Notes: generated by a model from the letters alone, not told the origin. A stretch of DNA of 64,000 nucleotides from an uncultured Candidatus Saccharibacteria bacterium (GCA_964599405.1 CAZRED010000001.1:75528-139527); one strand, 5' to 3'; positions 4,204 through 24,092 are shown, numbered from the stretch's first letter. Translations and numbers: made by a program.

Positions 4204-5447
4204 TGTTTCAACCCCGTTACGGCTTTGCGCATCATCGTCTCCAAGATACTTGATTCACCGATTAAATCTAACCCCACGTTGGCTAGCGCTAGCGGCGTTA
4301 CCTCGGAGATGTCTTCCAAATTACCGGTTTCGTCTTTCATGTTGGCGACGTCGCCGGGATGGATGAACTGAACGTCAGGCACCCTGGCAAACGGCAAGTC
4401 TTTCACCCAACCAACGCTTTCCAAGACTTGTTTAATTTCTGGCAGGTTGCTACCACCCCCGCAGAGTAAAATTTTTGATGGTAACAGGTCGGATTCACCG
4501 AATTCTTCTAAGGAAATTTGTAGCGCTGAAAGCCAAACGTGACTATCCGATTCCAAGCCTTTCTGGACCTTGGCACTACTCTCCGCGTCAAGTTGGCCGG
4601 CGGAGTACTGTAATTTTAATTCTTCGGCTTCTTGGAAATTTTTTCCCATCACCGTAGCCACTCGCTTGGTGAAGGCACGCCCGCCAATCGCAAACATCTT
4701 GGTACCTTCAACGCCACCGTTGCGTACCACTGCCACATCAGTAGTACCACCGCCGATATCAATAAAAATCGCCGCGAAATCGGTGGATTCTTCATCGAGA
4801 CAACGCGCCACTGCGTACGGCTCGGCCGCCACGGCCAGCAGCTCTAAGCCCAGCTCGCTGACCACTGTTTCCAGCGCCCCTAGCTGCACAATTGGCGCAA
4901 AGGAATTGTAGACCCCCACAGCCAGTTCTTTGCCCTGGTAGCTCATGGGATTGGAAACTTTATAACCGTCGATAATCACGTTAACGATAGCGGCATTAAC
5001 TAGCTGGACATCGATTTCGTCTTGGCCGGTTTCCAGTGCCAACTCGGCCCGGGCTTGGCGAAATGCTTCGGCTTGAACTTTATTAACAATATCTTGTAGC
5101 TCAGACAGTTGGATCTGCTCGGATGGGTTTTCCCGGCGGATTTTAATGGTGCTAGTTGTACCTTTTACTAATTCGCCGGCAATGCCGATAATCGCTTGGG
5201 TCGGTAGGTGTTGAGCTTGGTTAGCGGCCTCTTCGATCGCCATTTCGCAGTTTTTGGCTACGCCATGGATATCGGTCACGCCGCCACCTTGCATATCCGA
5301 GAGTCGTTGGCGGGTTCGCCCAACGCCCCGGACATAGCCCCGGCCGTCAATTACTTCAAAAACCAGGGCTTTAACAAACTCGGTGCCAATATCCAATGAA
5401 ATTGCCCAATTAGACTGTCGTTTTTTCTTCCCTCCGAAGATTCCCAT
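4200..5447 (-). CDS. ftsA: actin-like ATPase, cell division protein FtsA-like (PilM not excluded)
   Basis: AISLDIGTEFVKALVFE... phosphate-1 motif, DIGGGTTDV phosphate-2 motif; 415 aa. Confidence 0.6.
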   Translation of the reverse strand: MGIFGGKKKRQSNWAISLDIGTEFVKALVFEVIDGRGYVRGVGRTRQRLSDMQGGGVTDIHGVAKNCEMAIEEAANQAQHLPTQAIIGIAGELVKGTTSTIKIRRENPSEQIQLSELQDIVNKVQAEAFRQARAELALETGQDEIDVQLVNAAIVNVIIDGYKVSNPMSYQGKELAVGVYNSFAPIVQLGALETVVSELGLELLAVAAEPYAVARCLDEESTDFAAIFIDIGGGTTDVAVVRNGGVEGTKMFAIGGRAFTKRVATVMGKNFQEAEELKLQYSAGQLDAESSAKVQKGLESDSHVWLSALQISLEEFGESDLLPSKILLCGGGSNLPEIKQVLESVGWVKDLPFARVPDVQFIHPGDVANMKDETGNLEDISEVTPLALANVGLDLIGESSILETMMRKAVTGLKQ

Positions 5448-16332: not shown

Positions 16333-17170
16333 ACTAGCCGACCGGCGCTTTGCCTGGTTGGTGGTAGTGTTTCTCTGGGGAGCTGCCTATCTCTCACAGC
16401 TCCATTACGACACCTGGCGGCTTTACAGTCCGGCGAAAATTACTGTTGATTACAACGAATTTATCGAGCCGCAGCCGCTCTCGGGGAACAGTGCCAGACT
16501 GGCCAGCTTTGGCGCAACGGAATTTCTGGCCGATATTTACTGGCTGCAGTTGATTCAGTACTACGGCGGTGGTACACCCAACGGCCAATACCGAAAATTA
16601 CCCGAACTATTCTCCACCATAACCGAGCTAGCTCCTCACTTCAAACAAGCATATGTCACCGGGTTACTAATCCTTCCCGGCGAGGGATTTGTTGATCAAG
16701 CGCTAGCTCTTGGCGAAAAAGGCCAACAATTCCTGCCTGACGCCTGGGAGCTGCCGTACTACACCGGTTTGGTTTACCACATCTACCAAAAAGATTTTAC
16801 TGCTGCCGCCAAAGAGTTCGAAAAAGCCGCGGCAATTGCCGACTCTCCGCCAATTGCAAAGCTCTTTGCCGGTATTTACTACAAAGAAGCTAATCAGCGC
16901 CAAACCGCCTACATTATTTTCCAGACGATTTTGGCCACCAGCGACAACGACTTTGTACGGGAACGGGCTGCCAAGTACCTGCAACATCTCGACGGCATGA
17001 TTGCCCTAGAGAAAGCCGTTGCCCAATTTCACAGCCAATTTGGCCGCTACCCGACATCCCTGGGCGAGCTGGTAGCCAAACAAATAATTAGCGAATTACC
17101 TAAAAGTCCACTGGTTATCGAATACACCTACGACTCCGTTACCGGTGCGGTCGGGGAAGCCGCCAATTAG
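16322..17170 (+). CDS. membrane-anchored helical-repeat (TPR-like) protein, in transporter operon
   Basis: 282 aa with N-terminal TM; overlaps permease stop. Confidence 0.5.
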   Translation: MKRELADRRFAWLVVVFLWGAAYLSQLHYDTWRLYSPAKITVDYNEFIEPQPLSGNSARLASFGATEFLADIYWLQLIQYYGGGTPNGQYRKLPELFSTITELAPHFKQAYVTGLLILPGEGFVDQALALGEKGQQFLPDAWELPYYTGLVYHIYQKDFTAAAKEFEKAAAIADSPPIAKLFAGIYYKEANQRQTAYIIFQTILATSDNDFVRERAAKYLQHLDGMIALEKAVAQFHSQFGRYPTSLGELVAKQIISELPKSPLVIEYTYDSVTGAVGEAAN

Positions 17171-18114
17171 CTGCCGGCGAACAGTCGCCAAACGGCGTCA
17201 GCCAACTTTTTGGAACTATGGAACAGCGGCTGGCTTTCATTAATTAAATCCGTCCGGACGATTGGCACACCCAGAATTTCCGTTTCTTCGGCGGTAATAT
17301 TGTGAATGCTGCCGGGCTTGTCCTCACTGCCTCTGGCCACAACCTTGTCGTTCACTAACGCCGCGTCAAACCGGGTGCCGTTAACGTAACGACGAAGTTG
17401 CTTAATATGGTCTTCCACCGTGAAACCTTCTGTTTCGCCGCGCTCGGTCGAAGCATTACAGATGTAAATTTTCATCGCCGTCGATTTTTCAAAGGCGTCG
17501 CGAAATTCTTTAATCAAAAAGTTTGGCAAAATACTGGTGAACAAGCTGCCTGGCCCCACTAAAATTAAATCGGCGTTATTAATAAAATGAATGGCGGTCG
17601 GGTTAGCTTTGGCGCCCACCGGCGAAAGTTCAATCTTGTCTATGCCGAAGCGATGGCCCTGGACCGGAATATCCACTTCGCCCAATGCCTGCTGGCCATT
17701 TTTCAGCCGGGCAATCAAACTAACGTGCTCCAACGTTGATGGAATCACCTCGCCTTTAATCGACAGAATCTTACTGCTGGCTTGGACGGCCGACTCAAAA
17801 TCGCCAGTGATATCGGCCAGGGCAATTAGTAGCAAGTTGCCCAGCGAATGTCCGCTCAACCCTCGCCCTTTACCGAACCGGTACTCAAAAAGTTTCGTTA
17901 GCAGCTGCTCGTCGTCGGAGAGCGCCGCTAAACACTTTCGAATATCCCCGGGCGGCAGTACGCCCATTTCCCGACTCAACCGGCCACTGGAAGCGCCGTT
18001 GTCGGTCATGGTAACGATTCCCGATAAACTAACCGGGTGATTTTTTAGGCCACGCAAAAGGGTAGATAGCCCAGAACCCCCGCCAATGGCGACGACTTTG
18101 GGTTTGGGGGTCAT
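17167..18114 (-). CDS. yvcK: gluconeogenesis factor / UPF0052 YvcK (CofD-like)
   Basis: KVVAIGGGSGLSTLLRGLK N-terminal signature. Confidence 0.8.
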   Translation of the reverse strand: MTPKPKVVAIGGGSGLSTLLRGLKNHPVSLSGIVTMTDNGASSGRLSREMGVLPPGDIRKCLAALSDDEQLLTKLFEYRFGKGRGLSGHSLGNLLLIALADITGDFESAVQASSKILSIKGEVIPSTLEHVSLIARLKNGQQALGEVDIPVQGHRFGIDKIELSPVGAKANPTAIHFINNADLILVGPGSLFTSILPNFLIKEFRDAFEKSTAMKIYICNASTERGETEGFTVEDHIKQLRRYVNGTRFDAALVNDKVVARGSEDKPGSIHNITAEETEILGVPIVRTDLINESQPLFHSSKKLADAVWRLFAGS

Positions 18115-18626
18115 GGAACTAATGGATAGCGGTAATTGGTGACTTCGTCCAGCGCAGCGGGGCTGGATTTCGTCCAGGTTTGCAGGACAAATTTTTCTGA
18201 AGCCGTCGCCGTGCGGTTATTAGTGTAGGCCACGGCCGTTACGTGGAAAACGCCAAGGAAGTGAAAATCGTCTAGTTTGTACTTTTGAACGTAGCTGCCG
18301 CTGCCGTCAACCGTCATCTTCAGGGTTTGGGAGTTGTTAACGCTACCGTTAGGATATTGGGTAACGATTTCCAGCTCCGCGCCGGGAACGGTGGTGAAAG
18401 TGACGGTTTGGCTCTGCCCCAGCCGCACCACTTCCCGCGAAAAAGTAATCGCCAGCGGAAACGGCTGCTCTTCGGTTTGGCTCGCTTCGTTTTGCGAAGC
18501 GAGTACCGCCTCACTAATTGTCACTGGGTCGCGTTGCACGGTTATCTCGCGATTCCAGTTTAGACCCAGCGTCGTCAGAATCAGCGCGACGATGGTGAAG
18601 AAGGTGTTACGCAGCGTTCGTGACAT
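18111..18626 (-). CDS. hypothetical secreted protein
   Basis: Start at MSRTLRNTFFTIVALILTTLGL (signal/TM); no motif. Confidence 0.5.
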   Translation of the reverse strand: MSRTLRNTFFTIVALILTTLGLNWNREITVQRDPVTISEAVLASQNEASQTEEQPFPLAITFSREVVRLGQSQTVTFTTVPGAELEIVTQYPNGSVNNSQTLKMTVDGSGSYVQKYKLDDFHFLGVFHVTAVAYTNNRTATASEKFVLQTWTKSSPAALDEVTNYRYPLVP

Positions 18627-18710
18627 AGCTTTTTTATATTGTAGCCGCTTCAAGAACAATGACAACGCTCGTTGCGACGGCGCCAAAAACACGTTACGCT
18701 CGGAAAAGCG

Positions 18711-19688
18711 ATGACAGCCGACACTAACTACGACGTGGCAATTATTGGTTCCGGCATTGCTGGGCTTTCGGCCGGACTATATTCCGGTCGCTACGAACTA
18801 CCGACCGCCGTTATCGGCGATATGTTGGGCGGCGCCACCTCCACTGCTTGGACGGTGGAAAACTACCCGGGCTACAAAGAAATTGACGGCTACGATTTGA
18901 TTATCAAGGTTAAAGAGCAAAACGAAGCGCTCGGCGTCAATATTATTAACGATCGCGTCACCGGTTTGGAAAAGACCGGGGATGGTTTTGAGCTGTCGCT
19001 GCGCGACGGCGGCGAGCACAAAGTTCAAGCGAAAACGGTGATTTTTGCCGTTGGTGCTGCGAGGCGCAAATTGGGCGTTGATAAAGAGGACGAATTTTCC
19101 CAGGGCAAAGGCGTCCACTACTGCGCTACCTGTGACGCCCCGCTCTACAAAGGTAAGGTTATTGGATTAATCGGCGGAGGAGACGCCTCCGTTAAGGGAA
19201 TGAACTTGGCTGTTCAGTACGCCGAAAAGGTTCACGCTTTTGTCCGAGGCGACAAGCTCAAAGCCGAACCGATCAACTACGAGCGCCTCGAGCCGCATAT
19301 TCAGTCCGGCAAAGTGGAGGTTCACTTCAAAACCGAAATTACCGAACTGTTGGGTACGGAGCGCCTAACCGGTGTTAAAACCAACGACGGCCGAGAGATT
19401 GAGTTGGACGGCGTATTTATTGAAATTGGGGCCATCCCAGAAGTGGAGCTGGCCGAAAAAGTTGGCGTCAAGCTCGACGAGCACGGCTATATCGGCGTCA
19501 ACAATATGATGGAAACTAATGTTCCGGGAATCTACGCCGCTGGCGACACCACTAGTTTCTTTGGCCATTTCAAACAAGATATTACTGCCGCCGCCATGGG
19601 CGCCGTCGCCGCAACGTCGGCCTTTAACTTTGTTCAAAGCCAAAACGCTAAAACCGTCAAAGAGCCTGCCAAAGCAGCCGCCAACTGA
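18711..19688 (+). CDS. trxB: thioredoxin-disulfide reductase
   Basis: YDVAIIGSGIAGLSAG FAD motif; redox-active CATCDA. Confidence 0.85.
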   Translation: MTADTNYDVAIIGSGIAGLSAGLYSGRYELPTAVIGDMLGGATSTAWTVENYPGYKEIDGYDLIIKVKEQNEALGVNIINDRVTGLEKTGDGFELSLRDGGEHKVQAKTVIFAVGAARRKLGVDKEDEFSQGKGVHYCATCDAPLYKGKVIGLIGGGDASVKGMNLAVQYAEKVHAFVRGDKLKAEPINYERLEPHIQSGKVEVHFKTEITELLGTERLTGVKTNDGREIELDGVFIEIGAIPEVELAEKVGVKLDEHGYIGVNNMMETNVPGIYAAGDTTSFFGHFKQDITAAAMGAVAATSAFNFVQSQNAKTVKEPAKAAAN

Positions 19689-19729
19689 TTGAGCGGTAAG
19701 CATTTTACTGGTACAATTTGTATTACTAC

Positions 19730-19802
19730 AGGCCTGTAGCTCAGCGGTAGAGCAGGTGCCTTTTAAGCACTGTGCGGCGGGTTCGACTCCCGCCAGGCCT
19801 AC
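19730..19802 (+). tRNA. tRNA-Lys(UUU)
   Basis: AGGCCTG acceptor, D-arm GCTCAGCGGTAGAGC, anticodon loop CTTTTAA, T-arm GCGGGTTCGACTCCCGC. Confidence 0.8.
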
Positions 19803-19805
19803 ATG

Positions 19806-19836
19806 AAAAAGTACCCACCTCTGTGGGTACTTTTTA
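19806..19836 (+). terminator. rho-independent terminator-like hairpin (bidirectional)
   Basis: AAAAAGTACCCAC-CTCT-GTGGGTACTTTTTAT. Confidence 0.6.
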
Positions 19837-19932
19837 TGTATGTCTTGGGAGCGAACCAGCCGGCTTTGCCGGCTCGGTTAGATAGCGAGCGTAACGAAGT
19901 GAAGCGAGCTATACCGCAGCGAAGCGGAGGGT

Positions 19933-19949
19933 ACTCCCGCCAGGCCTAC
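19933..19949 (+). repeat. direct repeat of tRNA-Lys 3' end (copy 2)
   Basis: ACTCCCGCCAGGCCTAC is identical to tRNA 19786-19802; followed by CACCCTCCGC. Confidence 0.7.
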
Positions 19950-20032
19950 CACCCTCCGCTAAAGCTTCGGCTGGCAAGCCGATAGCGATACAATAGCGGT
20001 GCAACCCGTAGCTTTATGCGAAGGGTTGAAAA

Positions 20033-20269
20033 ATGTATTACGTCTATTTGTTAAAGCTGAAAAACGATAGTTATTACACTGGTATAACCAAGGACTTAAA
20101 GAATAGAGTTAAGAAACACAATAAGGGCGATGTTTTTACTACTAAGAGTAAACGTCCAGTTGAATTGGTTTTTTACTGTGCTTTTCCTTCCAAAAGCCGC
20201 GCAGCTAATTTTGAAGCGTATTTAAAGACTGGCTCCGGCCAGGCGTTTCGCAACCGCCATTTTCTGTGA
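20033..20269 (+). CDS. GIY-YIG nuclease-superfamily protein (UPF0213/YhbQ-like)
   Basis: MYYVYLLKLKNDSYYTGITKDLKNRVKKHN GIY-YIG motif. Confidence 0.7.
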   Translation: MYYVYLLKLKNDSYYTGITKDLKNRVKKHNKGDVFTTKSKRPVELVFYCAFPSKSRAANFEAYLKTGSGQAFRNRHFL

Positions 20270-20281
20270 CGAAGCGCCGAC

Positions 20282-20298
20282 GACTCCCGCCAGGCCTA
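20282..20298 (+). repeat. direct repeat of tRNA-Lys 3' end (copy 3)
   Basis: ACTCCCGCCAGGCCTAC followed by GACCCTCCGCC. Confidence 0.7.
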
Positions 20299-20319
20299 CG
20301 ACCCTCCGCCTTTTCCACC

Positions 20320-20700
20320 TTACTTGACATATGTTTTTAAAAAGAGCGAAAATATTAGTGATGAGGGTTCCCAACGGACTTCTCAAGGAACATTTGGATG
20401 GCAGTAGATTATCGATACGGAAAGGTAATGCGCCGTAACAAGCGCACATCGCACGTCAATGGAGCCGGCGGGGGCAGGAAGCTCCCACCTCGACAGCATC
20501 GTCTAGACAGAAACCGAAAGCTGGCACCAACGAATCCGTAACGATCCACGACCAAACGCATCATGGCAAAGAGCACACGGGGAAACTTAAGGTAACCCAA
20601 TGACCCAAAACGGGTCGCAGCAAAAAGCCATGAAAGCGTTCAGGCCGGGGAAAGACACACGTCTTTACGTGACATTGTCGTCACCCCCGGTCTTTTTCTT
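20320..20700 (+). ncRNA. ORF-free structured region; candidate structured RNA (RNase P RNA-like motif), unresolved
   Basis: GAAAGGUAAUGCGCC-GUAACAA-GCGCAC hairpin resembles RNase P P10-12 GGUGCGGUAAGAGCGCACC. ACAGAAACCG resembles the P4 3' strand. GGUAACCC...GCAGCAA resembles the P15 region. A long nested terminal stem CCGGGG...CCCCGG is followed by TCTTTTTCT. No ORF of 60 aa or more with coding character. Confidence 0.3.
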
Positions 20701-20712
20701 AATACTCAATAT

Positions 20713-21246
20713 TTAATAATCCGAGCTACTGCGACCCTTGCCCAAACCACCGGTCGCAATTAACGCAATTAACGGGGCGATAAACCACCAAACTTCTTTG
20801 GTAATAATCATTTTGGCAATCCGCGAGGTTTCCGAAAATTTTGTCTGGGATTCGGCATCCATAAAGGAAAACACCGCCGCCAAAATTAATGCCGAATTCA
20901 AAAAGCTAAACAACGCCAGCTCAAAGGTTGAAAGTTTGCCGCCGCTACTGGAGTTCCGGCTACCCAAGCCAGAGCGAATCGTTACTAACACTACCGTCAA
21001 TAAAAAGACGCCGCTCTGAATTGAAAACGGCGAGGTGTTGGCGCTAATAAACAATGAGTTGGCAACGGTTTTGTCGCCGTTAAAGAATTGCTGGAGCGGC
21101 GCGCCAAGAATCCCGGCCATCACAATACCAACGTAGATTGCTAAAAGCGTCACCACTACCTTGTCGCGCTGCAACACAAAGGAGTAGCCGATGCTGACAA
21201 TGAAAAAAATCGTTAAAAACAAATCCCAGCTTGGAACGGTCTGCAC
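20713..21246 (-). CDS. integral membrane protein
   Basis: 177 aa, 5 TM helices. Confidence 0.55.
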   Translation of the reverse strand: MQTVPSWDLFLTIFFIVSIGYSFVLQRDKVVVTLLAIYVGIVMAGILGAPLQQFFNGDKTVANSLFISANTSPFSIQSGVFLLTVVLVTIRSGLGSRNSSSGGKLSTFELALFSFLNSALILAAVFSFMDAESQTKFSETSRIAKMIITKEVWWFIAPLIALIATGGLGKGRSSSDY

Positions 21247-21318
21247 CCCTCGTTACCTCCTGAATTCAGTATCTTAAGAAGTGGCCCTGGTGTCAAATTA
21301 AAAGATAAAAAATCCCGC

Positions 21319-21531
21319 TTAAACAGATTGCGTAAGCGGGGAGGAAAGTTCGTCCATTCGATCAGCAAAGTCGGCGCCACACTCGGAGCAGCCGGCGCGG
21401 ATGTGACGTTGCAGCTTGGCCATATTTGAGTCATGAGCGATTGGCTTATTTTTGGTCAGAGCTTCTGCCAGTTCGTAGATCTCTCGCTGCGTTATAGTGC
21501 AGCGTCGGTTTTCTCCAGAAGGTACGTTCAT
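21319..21531 (-). CDS. small Cys-containing hypothetical protein
   Basis: 70 aa, CTITQ...CSECG; fills the gap before the topoisomerase gene. Confidence 0.3.
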   Translation of the reverse strand: MNVPSGENRRCTITQREIYELAEALTKNKPIAHDSNMAKLQRHIRAGCSECGADFADRMDELSSPLTQSV

Positions 21532-21600
21532 ATGGGCAAATTATACCTTCCTAGCACTCTTGTGTCACTACCAAATTGACGGGCGTGATACACTAGCCGC

Positions 21601-22656
21601 ATGAGTGATGCCGTCGCCCTCGTCAAAGATCCAGTTGAGTCTGCTAAAGAAGCGGGTCTGCGTTATTTTTCCGACAATAAACTAACGATTAGCCGCGTCA
21701 AACACGGCGACGGGTTCCGCTACATTAGTAAAGACGAGGAACCGATCAGTGACGTCGACACCATTACTCGCATTAAATCCTTGGTCCTGCCGCCGGCTTG
21801 GGTAGAAGTGAAAATATCGCCAGTCGATAACAGCCACCTGCAAGCAGTGGGTATCGACGAAAAAGGCCGCAAGCAATACCGCTACCACCCGGAGTGGCTG
21901 AAGTTCCGCGACCAAACCAAGTACGACAAATTGATTGATTTCGGCAAAGCCCTGCCGAAAATCCGCACCCAAGTTTCCGTTGATATGTCTAAACAAGGCT
22001 TACCGCGCGAGAAAGTATTAGCAGCAATAGTCAAAATGCTGGAGAAAACGATGATTCGCATCGGTAATGAACAGTACGCCAAAGAAAACAAATCCTACGG
22101 CCTAACTACCCTCCAAAACCGCCATGTTGACGTTGGAACCGAGAAAGTCACCATCAATTTCAAGGGCAAAAGCGGCCAGTTTCACACTATTGAGTTGGAA
22201 GACCGCCGGCTGGCCCGGCTGATTGGCAAACTCCAGGATTTACCCGGTCAAGATTTGTTCCAGTTTATTGATGACAACGACAACCTCCATGGCATCGACT
22301 CGGCTGACGTTAACGAATACATCCAAGAAGCCGCTAACGATGAGTTTACCGCCAAAGATTTCCGGACTTGGCGTGGCACGGTCTTGGCCGCCTGGTTTCT
22401 GGCTGACTGCGAGCGCGCCAAAACCCAAAAGGAAAACAAAAAACTCGTCACCCAAATAGTTAAAGAAGTTGCCGCCGAACTAGGTAATACGCCAACAGTT
22501 TGCCGCAAGTGCTATATCCACCCGACTGTCATTGACAGCTTCCTGGCCGAATCCGGTATGACTATTAAAGCCATCAACACCATAGAAGTGGACACGGTTG
22601 ATTTACTGCCGGAAGAAAAAGTCGTTCTGGAATTCCTGAAACAAAACACCGCCTAA
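21601..22656 (+). CDS. DNA topoisomerase IB (poxvirus-like bacterial TopIB)
   Basis: RYFSDNK...GFRY...LPPAWVEVKISP...GRKQYRYHPEW; 351 aa. Confidence 0.75.
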   Translation: MSDAVALVKDPVESAKEAGLRYFSDNKLTISRVKHGDGFRYISKDEEPISDVDTITRIKSLVLPPAWVEVKISPVDNSHLQAVGIDEKGRKQYRYHPEWLKFRDQTKYDKLIDFGKALPKIRTQVSVDMSKQGLPREKVLAAIVKMLEKTMIRIGNEQYAKENKSYGLTTLQNRHVDVGTEKVTINFKGKSGQFHTIELEDRRLARLIGKLQDLPGQDLFQFIDDNDNLHGIDSADVNEYIQEAANDEFTAKDFRTWRGTVLAAWFLADCERAKTQKENKKLVTQIVKEVAAELGNTPTVCRKCYIHPTVIDSFLAESGMTIKAINTIEVDTVDLLPEEKVVLEFLKQNTA

Positions 22657-22736
22657 TTCCCGTAACTATTTATTTATTATACGAATATACGTGTATATAA
22701 GTGGCGCTTAGTAAAATTTCGTAAATTATTCTCTAA

Positions 22737-22768
22737 GAACAAATATACGTTTAAACATATATTTGTTC
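22737..22768. promoter_or_regulatory. 32-bp near-perfect palindrome with core ATATACGTTTAAACATATAT
   Basis: GAACAAATATACGTTTAAACATATATTTGTTC; the same core recurs at 45539-45558 and 32446-32465. Confidence 0.6.
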
Positions 22769-22792
22769 TTCAATAATTAACGTAAAAGAAAA

Positions 22793-22825
22793 CGCCGACC
22801 GCAATGCGGTCGGCGCTGGAAAGTG
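22793..22825 (-). terminator. rho-independent terminator for 22829..23416 gene
   Basis: Minus strand GCCGACCGCAttGCGGTCGGC then TTTTCTTTT. Confidence 0.7.
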
Positions 22826-22828
22826 GTG

Positions 22829-23416
22829 TCAGGCCGTTGGCTGGGGCGCTGGAACCGGCTTTGGGGCAAACACTCCCGCCACCTTCGCCCAACTGCTCTT
22901 GATCAGCCCCTTACAAGTAGTCTTGATACTGATATCGAAGTGACGCATTAGGTAGAGATGGAATCCTATCGGCACAGCTATCCAGACAAGCCACCTGAGT
23001 GAATAAGGATCAGAGGGTAACCTAGGCCAAAATAAAAACATGACTACACAGATAACTTGGAAGAGGAAAACCGCACCAAGTCGATAAACCCGACTCCATT
23101 CAATACCGGAGGGGTAAGTACGCTCTGTCCCCATCTGCTCAAGATCGCGAATCATTCGTTCGACTTCCCTAAGCTGTGACCTAATAAAGAAGAAATAGTG
23201 GAAAACGGATATGAATACCGCTGCTAGCAAGAGCTCAGTCACGTCGCCAGGATTGATTAACGCGCTAAAGGATATGTATCCAGGCAACATAAGGCCGGCG
23301 ATCACGACATAGCCACGAACCGCCACTGCCTGATCAATGCCGAAGAACTTCGCTGTTTTCATCAGTTGCTTCGCCCACCAGTCGAAGCCACTGTCTACTG
23401 GTAGGAAAATGTTCAT
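22829..23416 (-). CDS. integral membrane protein
   Basis: 195 aa, 4-5 TM helices. Confidence 0.55.
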   Translation of the reverse strand: MNIFLPVDSGFDWWAKQLMKTAKFFGIDQAVAVRGYVVIAGLMLPGYISFSALINPGDVTELLLAAVFISVFHYFFFIRSQLREVERMIRDLEQMGTERTYPSGIEWSRVYRLGAVFLFQVICVVMFLFWPRLPSDPYSLRWLVWIAVPIGFHLYLMRHFDISIKTTCKGLIKSSWAKVAGVFAPKPVPAPQPTA

Positions 23417-23486
23417 GTTCTACTCCAGAACGACAAAAGCCGTTTTGTAAGAGTATTTTACCAGGTCACGGGGGCAAATCAATAAA

Positions 23487-24092
23487 TTAGCGCAGGTTTT
23501 TGAGTTGTTCGTAGAGATCGCGTTCGGCACGGGAGAGGTGGTGGGGGATTTCAATAGCGATTACAACAGTTAAATCCCCTCGGCCGCGGCGGGTTTGCTG
23601 GCCTTTGCCGCGAAAACGGAAACCTTCGCCGGTTTGGACTCCGGCGGGGATTTTTAGCTCTATTTCGTCGCCAAATTGGGTTTTAAATTTTACCGTGTCC
23701 CCTAAAACGGCCTGGGGGATAGAGATCGAAATCTGCACTTGGACGTTGGCAAAGGCGCTTTCAAATAAATCTTCAAAAATTGAGCCAAATCCACCGCCGC
23801 CGGAACTGCGGAAACCGCCGAAACCGGAAAATCCGTCAAAGCCACCAGCCGCTCCCCCACTCTGCCCCCCACCAAAACCGCTACGGGTTCCGGCATGACC
23901 AAACTGGTCGTATGAGGCGCGTTTCTGGGCATTGCCTAAAACCTGGTAGGCCTCGTTAATTTCTTGGAATTTGGCCTTATCTCCCCCCTTGTCCGGGTGG
24001 AGTTTGTGAGCCATTTTTCGGTAGGCCTTTTTGATGTCAGCTTCGGTCGCTTTTTTATCGACGCCCAAAACCTCGTAGTAATCTCGTGCCAT
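23487..24092 (-). CDS. dnaJ: J-domain co-chaperone, DnaJ-like without zinc-finger domain
   Basis: DYYEVLGV...HPDK J-domain, G/F-rich region, C-terminal DnaJ-C fragment. No CxxCxGxG repeats; 201 aa. Confidence 0.8.

Follow-up and report, generated by a model that had tools for sequence, protein, structure and literature searches.

The tail of the tRNA-Lys gene is present in three copies in the DNA of an uncultured Candidatus Saccharibacteria bacterium, and these copies most likely record repeated insertions, behind this one tRNA gene, of small units that include a cassette of about 0.35 kb encoding only a 78-residue predicted nuclease. Relatives of this cassette are found directly behind tRNA and tmRNA genes in many uncultured bacteria. 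The window analysed is a 64,000-nt stretch (GCA_964599405.1 CAZRED010000001.1:75528-139527), and the tRNA-Lys gene, repeats, hairpins and GIY-YIG gene described below lie on its + strand. An initial annotation of the sequence had noted that the tRNA 3' end recurs twice downstream, around hairpin-rich non-coding DNA and a GIY-YIG gene, and had suggested nested attL/attR remnants of small integrative elements whose integrase has been lost. The observation was confirmed, apart from a one-base offset in the coordinates given for the third copy. The interpretation was only partly supported: the repeats are footprints of insertions at tRNA-Lys, but the loss of an integrase is not supported. No published description of such a cassette was found in literature searches combining GIY-YIG with tRNA, target-site duplication, tmRNA or Patescibacteria, although absence from the texts searched is not proof that the cassette is unknown.

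The 17-mer ACTCCCGCCAGGCCTAC occurs exactly three times in the 64 kb, at 19786-19802, 19933-19949 and 20283-20299, whereas the expectation from shuffled sequence is 0.00. The first copy is the 3' end of tRNA-Lys(UUU), located at 19730-19802 (ARAGORN; Rfam RF00005, 67.9 bits), and runs from T-loop position 58 to the base after the discriminator. CCA is not encoded by this gene (...CCTAC|ATG), which runs straight into a terminator-like hairpin. The third copy matches the tRNA over 19 nt (20281-20299). Copies 2 and 3 are embedded in a 40-nt direct repeat (19920-19959 and 20270-20309) with 85% identity and a start-to-start distance of 350 nt, which adds CGAAGCG on the 5' side and (C/G)ACCCTCCGC on the 3' side. 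The left repeat thus consists of the right-end motif CGAAGCG, the tRNA fragment, and the start of the cassette's left end, CACCCTCCGC. The right repeat contains copy 3 followed by GACCCTCCGC (20300-20309), a 10-nt stretch interpreted as a remnant of another cassette left end. None of the other eight tRNAs in the window has a duplicated 3' end, and a search for the left-end motif elsewhere in the window found only this locus, so it is not a dispersed repeat in these 64 kb.

The first interval between copies (19803-19932), here called unit A, is a 130-nt insert without an ORF. It starts with a perfect 13-bp hairpin followed by TTTTT (19806-19835) and ends in GCGAAGCGGAGGGT (AGCGGAGGGT), the reverse complement of the cassette's left end. 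The second interval holds two hairpins and the GIY-YIG gene (20033-20269; 78 aa), whose GC content is 38%, against 49% for the window. GC3 of the gene is 0.42, compared to 0.58-0.60 in neighboring genes. Rfam searches of 19650-20760, both at gathering thresholds and at E-values up to 10, detected only the tRNA; no known RNA family covers the hairpins.

Synteny was examined using the flanking thioredoxin-reductase-like (TrxB) gene, which identified 13 related loci, all from Patescibacteria (candidate phyla radiation) genome bins; individual loci are designated below by L numbers. Nine of them carry a called tRNA-Lys next to the TrxB gene. Five relatives (L002, L005, L006, L011, and L013) have a single tRNA tail and no GIY-YIG gene. 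The closest relative, L001 (TrxB 88% identical), has the tRNA, a 135-nt spacer, a second tail copy matching its own tRNA, and a GIY-YIG gene with 71% identity at the protein level, but no third copy. Three tail copies separated by only 41-67 nt are present in L003 and L007, and two copies in L008; none of these three loci has a nuclease gene nearby. Diverged homologs of unit A occupy the same position in L001 and L008. In every case the extra copies are exact 17-18-mers of that lineage's own tRNA-Lys, although the tRNA sequences differ between lineages. Alleles with single-copy sites therefore exist and the phenomenon recurs, so the possibility that the arrangement is conserved ancestral sequence without empty-site alleles, named beforehand as grounds for rejecting the insertion reading, does not hold. 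No pair of filled and empty sites with identical flanks was found, however, and the insertion boundaries are inferred.

A protein search returned 55 homologs of the GIY-YIG protein, nearly all of 78 aa, and residues Y5, Y15, G17, R25, H29, and E61 were invariant in 40 homologs. A metagenome scan based on one peptide pattern gave at least 570 relatives, of which the best 80 loci were kept; some of these are near-duplicates (L085/L087, L042/L045). Of 67 genes with at least 300 nt of upstream sequence, 49 have a same-strand tRNA ending within 300 nt upstream and none has an opposite-strand one, whereas other ORFs in the same loci gave 13 of 144 and 12 of 144, respectively. Six further loci have a same-strand tmRNA upstream, and several others have decayed fragments running from the T-arm to the 3' end. 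At least 14 tRNA identities are involved: Ser (all isoacceptors), Lys, Cys, Asp, Tyr, Trp, Phe, Glu, Met, His, Ala, Asn, Arg, and Gln. In a neighbor-joining tree the nucleases cluster by tRNA identity. All nine intact members retrieved for the clade of the window (the window, L001, L015, L016, L099, L101, L102, L105, and L106) lie behind tRNA-Lys (UUU or CUU). This correlation between clade and tRNA type could partly reflect old vertical inheritance. Several loci hold multiple and truncated copies; in L092, truncated copies with 89% identity are found 1.7 kb apart.

The left junction of the cassette lies directly after the N-CC(A) of the tRNA in nearly all loci. The cassette opens with C(A/C)C-TTCGC(T/C)AA(A/G)GCTTCG in most clades and with CCGCC|TTCGC in the Ser clade. 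Copy 2 in the window (tRNA positions 58-74) is followed by CA and reads ...GGCCTA-CCA-CC-CTCCGCTAAAGCTTCGG; it is therefore this same junction, CCA included. The junction tRNA-CCA|C(A/C)C-TTCGC... is observed in L015, L016, L099, L102, and L105, where the cassette abuts an intact tRNA. The right end often reads ...RCGAAG followed by a few nucleotides. The left end CTTCGC... and the right end ...RCGAAG are reverse complements in many but not all loci, as judged without a statistical test.

Two hairpins are predicted in the cassette. The first (19949-19974 in the window) spans the junction: its 5' arm CCACCC (19949-19954) includes the CCA of the tRNA copy, the loop is TCCGCTAAAGCTTC, and the 3' arm is GGCTGG (19969-19974), with five of six positions paired. 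Across the family, the six nucleotides before the TTCGC motif include one to six nucleotides of the tRNA itself and have a perfect complement 8-75 nt downstream in 24 of 45 loci, against 4% when arms were exchanged between loci. The complementary arm covaries with the tRNA terminus: GGCGGA for Ser, GGTAGC for Glu, GTAGTG for Tyr, GGCAGG for a ...CCTGCC end, and GTGTGG for CCA-CAC. The second hairpin is located just before the start codon (20002-20028) and consists of the stem CAACCC/GGGTTG closing the conserved loop GTAGCTTTATGCGAA; this module is the reverse complement of the left-end motif. In the family, the conserved 14-nt loop (GAAGCTTTAGCGAA and variants) is closed by a stem of 6-8 bp. 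Among 60 unique instances, 47 have at least five consecutive pairs and 40 distinct arm sequences are present, with a mean of 5.75 pairs against 2.0 in the control. The region is about 90% identical between the window and L001, compared to 72% for the ORF. Both hairpins were recovered by RNAalifold in the Lys clade, with compensatory changes.

Displaced tRNA fragments were detected downstream of the nuclease gene in about 20% of loci. In 9 of 49 evaluable loci, the 150 nt after the stop codon contain a significant copy of the upstream tRNA's own 3' end (Tyr, Ser, Phe, Ala, Asn, Gln, and Lys tRNAs), whereas the control using the tRNA 5' end gave 1 of 49. Where the next tRNA starts 9-43 nt after the stop codon, there is no room for such a fragment. 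Across these loci and the TrxB-linked loci, 13 of 17 duplications start at tRNA positions 55-59, most often at 58 (TTCG|A). The duplicated length is not fixed (12-20 nt or more), and the repeats include element sequence on both sides, unlike a plain target-site duplication. The distal fragment is sometimes followed by the start of another left end: 26 nt in L062, 11 nt in L091, at least 14 nt in L101, and 10 nt in the window. L101, whose GIY-YIG protein is 74% identical, reproduces the whole layout of the window around a different tRNA-Lys: the tRNA, an analogous 175-nt terminator-bearing unit, a tail copy, the cassette, then a tail copy plus a left end. Its repeat is a 29-nt exact match in which the contig ends.

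The protein has a Pfam GIY-YIG match (PF01541, E 8e-18) covering residues 1-69, and no DNA-binding domain. A profile search of PDB sequences returned only UPF0213 proteins (1zg2, BH0048, at E 4e-16; 1ywl, EF2693) and SLX1. The AlphaFold2 model (pLDDT 95.7) has the Slx1/UPF0213 fold, with Foldseek top hits to UPF0213 and Slx1 (TMq 0.61-0.70 to 1zg2, 7cq3, and 6seh) and I-TevI only at rank 23 (E 1.4). This fold is that of a lineage of structure-specific nucleases, which cut DNA structures rather than sequences (PMC1564403). Dunin-Horkawicz et al. (PMC1564403) place such minimal bacterial domains in the Slx1 lineage, which they describe as vertically inherited, and derive the selfish GIY-YIG enzymes from the other (UvrC+) lineage. 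The protein is thus not of the classical homing-endonuclease type. Searches of NCBIfam, PHROGs, and PADLOC gave no hit for the nuclease, so nothing supports a known defense system or phage family, and tblastn against phage records gave at most 41% identity.

Based on these data, the inserts are interpreted as members of a family of integrase-less mini-cassettes found mainly in Patescibacteria. The autonomous form would comprise the left-end hairpin pairing with the terminal nucleotides (N-CCA) of the tRNA, the second hairpin, the nuclease gene, and the short right end. It sits directly after the 3' end of a tRNA or tmRNA gene, on the same strand, and is often followed by a displaced copy of that gene's last 17-20 nt, starting at T-loop position 57/58. 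It is the same one-gene unit wherever it was found, in 80 metagenomic loci and behind many tRNA species and tmRNA, and looks like a mobile unit in its own right rather than debris of a larger island. At least three events can be read in the window. An old insertion would survive only as the 10-nt stub at 20300-20309; the GIY-YIG cassette would originally have abutted tRNA-Lys-CCA, leaving this junction as copy 2 and the displaced fragment as copy 3; later, unit A would have inserted between the tRNA body and that junction, bringing a terminator and pushing the cassette 147 nt away from the tRNA. The repeats could equally be read as the junction of a circular or head-to-tail form.

The repeats, the presence and absence of the cassette among relatives, the tRNA association, the T-loop breakpoints, the covarying arms, and the anomalous composition of the ORF are direct results of the analysis, whereas the order of events, the mobility, the nuclease activity (including structure-specific cleavage, inferred from Slx1 only), and the mechanism are inferred. 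In the mechanism we favor as the most economical, nuclease-initiated insertion or homing, the nuclease would cut at the tRNA T-loop and/or at the hairpin or cruciform at the tRNA/cassette junction, and the break would be repaired by host functions copying a cassette-bearing template, with the conserved tRNA 3' end and its complementary arm acting as the homology or guide segment. This would regenerate an intact tRNA and leave the old 3' fragment distally, and same-strand placement behind a tRNA promoter would also provide expression. No cleavage, excision, or transfer has been observed, and a 78-aa catalytic domain has no evident way to recognize a sequence. We consider it likely that this is a mobile cassette family aimed at tRNA 3' ends, but only somewhat more likely than not that the full account, with the nuclease as the agent, is correct. 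Possible, though doubtful, is the further reading that a bare Slx1-type domain is the sole enzyme of a previously unrecognized class of mobile cassette targeting tRNA and tmRNA 3' ends, in which target choice is set by nucleic-acid pairing of the hairpin arm and the carried tRNA fragment with the tRNA terminus and not by the protein. This would be a minimal, structure-guided homing or transposition system and would give a first function to bacterial UPF0213 proteins.

Several other mechanisms were considered, none of which appears likely. The cassette and the ORF-less units could be satellites carrying an attP-like tRNA fragment, mobilized in trans by a tyrosine integrase that is specific for the T-loop sublocation and encoded elsewhere in the genome or on a phage, with the GIY-YIG gene as cargo. 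The geometry is exactly that of integrase islands (PMC4383910), the breakpoint lies in the T-loop, element-borne specificity would explain why clades follow tRNA type, and the repeats resemble a circle junction. The duplications without a nearby nuclease gene (L003, L007, and L008) indicate that the duplicating activity need not be encoded in cis and, together with the absence of distal fragments in about 80% of loci, are the strongest argument that another activity could be involved. However, no integrase lies near the locus in the window, where the ORFs at 17000-23500 encode a CofD-family protein, the TrxB-like protein, the GIY-YIG protein, a membrane protein, and topoisomerase IB, and no recombinase family was shared by two or more of 96 flanking ORFs from 30 loci (among the top 25 families). 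At least 14 tRNA identities plus tmRNA would need many cognate integrases, the one constant gene is the nuclease, and units of 41-130 nt are far smaller than known integrase substrates with arm sites. About as unlikely is a classical free-standing homing endonuclease, recognizing and cutting tRNA-gene DNA in cassette-free alleles and spreading by double-strand-break repair with co-conversion of flanks, the tRNA fragments being by-products of one-sided repair. Phage T4 SegB is a GIY-YIG enzyme encoded among tRNA genes and cuts in a tRNA gene (PMC2330249). tRNA-Lys alleles have been swapped between close relatives: the window and L001 share 88% TrxB identity but only about 65% tRNA identity, while the window tRNA is 100% identical to the L009 exons. 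In L015 the distal fragment differs from the tRNA at two acceptor-stem positions. Against this, the protein lacks a DNA-binding domain and belongs to the Slx1 lineage, and pure protein recognition of the universal T-loop would explain neither clades specific to a tRNA type nor the covarying junction hairpin.

Still less likely is that the gene is not mobile but a host gene co-transcribed with tRNAs, for example with a role in tRNA or RNA metabolism, the hairpins being processing signals and the repeated tails arising from local slippage or unequal crossing-over between short repeats. The same-strand position directly behind tRNAs and the inclusion of the CCA end in the hairpin, as a 3'-processing signal might have it, would fit, as would the vertical inheritance described for bacterial Slx1-like proteins and the one known fusion to a tRNA methyltransferase (PMC1564403). 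Patchy presence at the same locus among relatives, multiple and truncated copies, the many different tRNAs and tmRNA, the foreign GC content, and the fixed T-loop start of distal fragments argue against it. Least likely is mobilization of hairpin-ended units as single-stranded DNA by a Y1 (HUH) transposase in trans, in the manner of IS200/IS605 or REP/RAYT systems, again with the GIY-YIG gene as cargo. Conserved hairpin modules occur in both orientations, and a Y1_Tnp gene lies about 200 nt upstream of the tRNA-Lys in L101; however, this adjacency was seen once, Y1_Tnp does not recur among the flanking ORFs, and Y1 elements insert without duplications.

The cassette can be compared with several known systems. 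As in genomic islands and prophages integrated at tRNA and tmRNA genes by tyrosine integrases (PMC4383910), the target is the 3' part of the gene, the gene is regenerated, a displaced 3' fragment forms a direct repeat that marks the far end, the breakpoint is in the T-loop, and one tRNA can be occupied serially; here, the unit is about 0.35 kb with one nuclease gene and no integrase rather than several kb or more, the repeats include element sequence, and the left end forms a hairpin with the tRNA terminus. Like SegB in the T4 tRNA gene cluster (PMC2330249), it places a plausibly selfish GIY-YIG gene among or behind tRNA genes, which may spread by break repair with co-conversion of neighboring tRNA sequence, but Seg and I-TevI enzymes have a C-terminal DNA-binding domain and belong to the UvrC+ lineage, and the present gene is chromosomal in uncultured bacteria, not phage-borne. 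With UPF0213 proteins and eukaryotic Slx1 it shares sequence profile, predicted fold, and the conserved GIY, YIG, Arg, and Glu residues; these proteins have been regarded as vertically inherited repair-type enzymes of unknown bacterial function (PMC1564403), Slx1 needs its partner Slx4 and a RING domain, and no tRNA linkage or mobility of them was found in the literature searched. In IS200/IS605 and REP/RAYT systems subterminal hairpins are the recognizable ends, and in IS608 the flank next to the left end is read by base pairing with an internal guide, much as the tRNA terminus here pairs with an internal arm; the cassette, however, has no HUH/Y1 transposase (its only ORF is the GIY-YIG gene), a different nuclease fold, and a duplicated tRNA fragment.

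tRNA genes are the classic landing sites of integrase-driven islands, and here they are occupied, across many uncultured lineages with very small genomes, by a cassette carrying only a 78-residue predicted nuclease. If mobile, it would be among the smallest autonomous selfish DNA elements, would show that the Slx1 branch of GIY-YIG nucleases, so far considered non-selfish, also gave rise to mobile elements, and would offer a testable function for UPF0213 proteins, whose structures were solved in 2005 without a known role. The covarying hairpin suggests a programmable, nucleic-acid-based way of choosing a target. The cassettes and their tRNA fragments can also break assemblies, as in L101, and mislead tools that call genomic islands from displaced tRNA fragments.

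A scan of viral contigs for the 17-mer gave one hit (L014), which has no tRNA, lies in what looks like coding sequence, and was treated as chance; no attP-bearing phage was found. Three short contigs (606-677 bp) carrying homologs showed no terminal overlaps indicative of circular or tandem forms. Inspection by eye for a tRNA-like minihelix formed by copies 2 or 3 with upstream sequence revealed nothing consistent between the window and L001. The region at 20322-20700 was initially considered a structured non-coding RNA, and its alignment across more distant relatives was uninformative; it more likely holds a conserved 47-aa basic ORF.

In the related locus L009, the tRNA-Lys(UUU) gene (4885-5167) is interrupted in the anticodon loop by an insert of about 210 nt. 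The insert matches the group I intron model (RF00028) with a score of 48 bits (E 2e-11), against a gathering score of 50. The exons of this gene are 100% identical to the tRNA-Lys of the window, although the neighbouring TrxB proteins are only 64% identical. The tRNA-Lys genes of the two closest genomes, those of the window (19730-19802) and of L001 (7379-7451), differ at about a third of their positions, while their TrxB proteins are 88% identical. This suggests that the tRNA allele was replaced by transfer or gene conversion in one lineage. A scan of the viral collection for the 17-mer of the tRNA-Lys 3' end detected a single exact match, on the minus strand of an IMG/VR contig (L014, 6611-6627); however, no tRNA is found there and the match appears to lie in coding sequence, so it is probably due to chance.

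A conserved ORF encoding a very basic product of 47 aa (MAVDYRYGKVMRRNKRTSHVNGAGGGRKLPPRQHRLDRNRKLAPTNP) was identified on the plus strand of the window at 20398-20541, within the region 20324-20700. An ORF of the same length and with the same stop position is present in L001 (7998-8141), and the two differ by 12 synonymous and 16 non-synonymous codon differences. The ORF of the window has a promoter-like site at 20324-20353 and a GC hairpin plus a T run near 20645-20700. No Pfam, PADLOC or Rfam hit was found. In L101, a Y1_Tnp gene (PF01797, IS200/IS605-type) was identified on the minus strand (276-929), about 200 nt upstream of the tRNA-Lys that carries the window-like triple repeat; this arrangement was seen only once.

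A second, divergent subfamily of small GIY-YIG genes, 34-42% identical to the first, was observed in four loci (L020, 562-711; L037, 631-843; L081, 335-550; and L086, 4157-4369). These genes lie immediately upstream of tRNA genes that are themselves followed by a cassette of the first kind. In the locus L063 (2186-3400), a tmRNA gene is followed by four tandem units of 114 nt, each of which holds the conserved-loop hairpin and a terminator-like hairpin, and then by the nuclease gene and a fifth unit. A similar tandem array is present after tRNA-Ser in the locus L029. In the locus L092 (155-413, 829-858, and 1861-2084), a 5'-truncated second copy of the nuclease gene, 89% identical over 164 nt, lies 1.7 kb from the first, and a third copy of only the last 30 nt of the cassette also exists; the common right boundary is about 7 nt after the stop codon.
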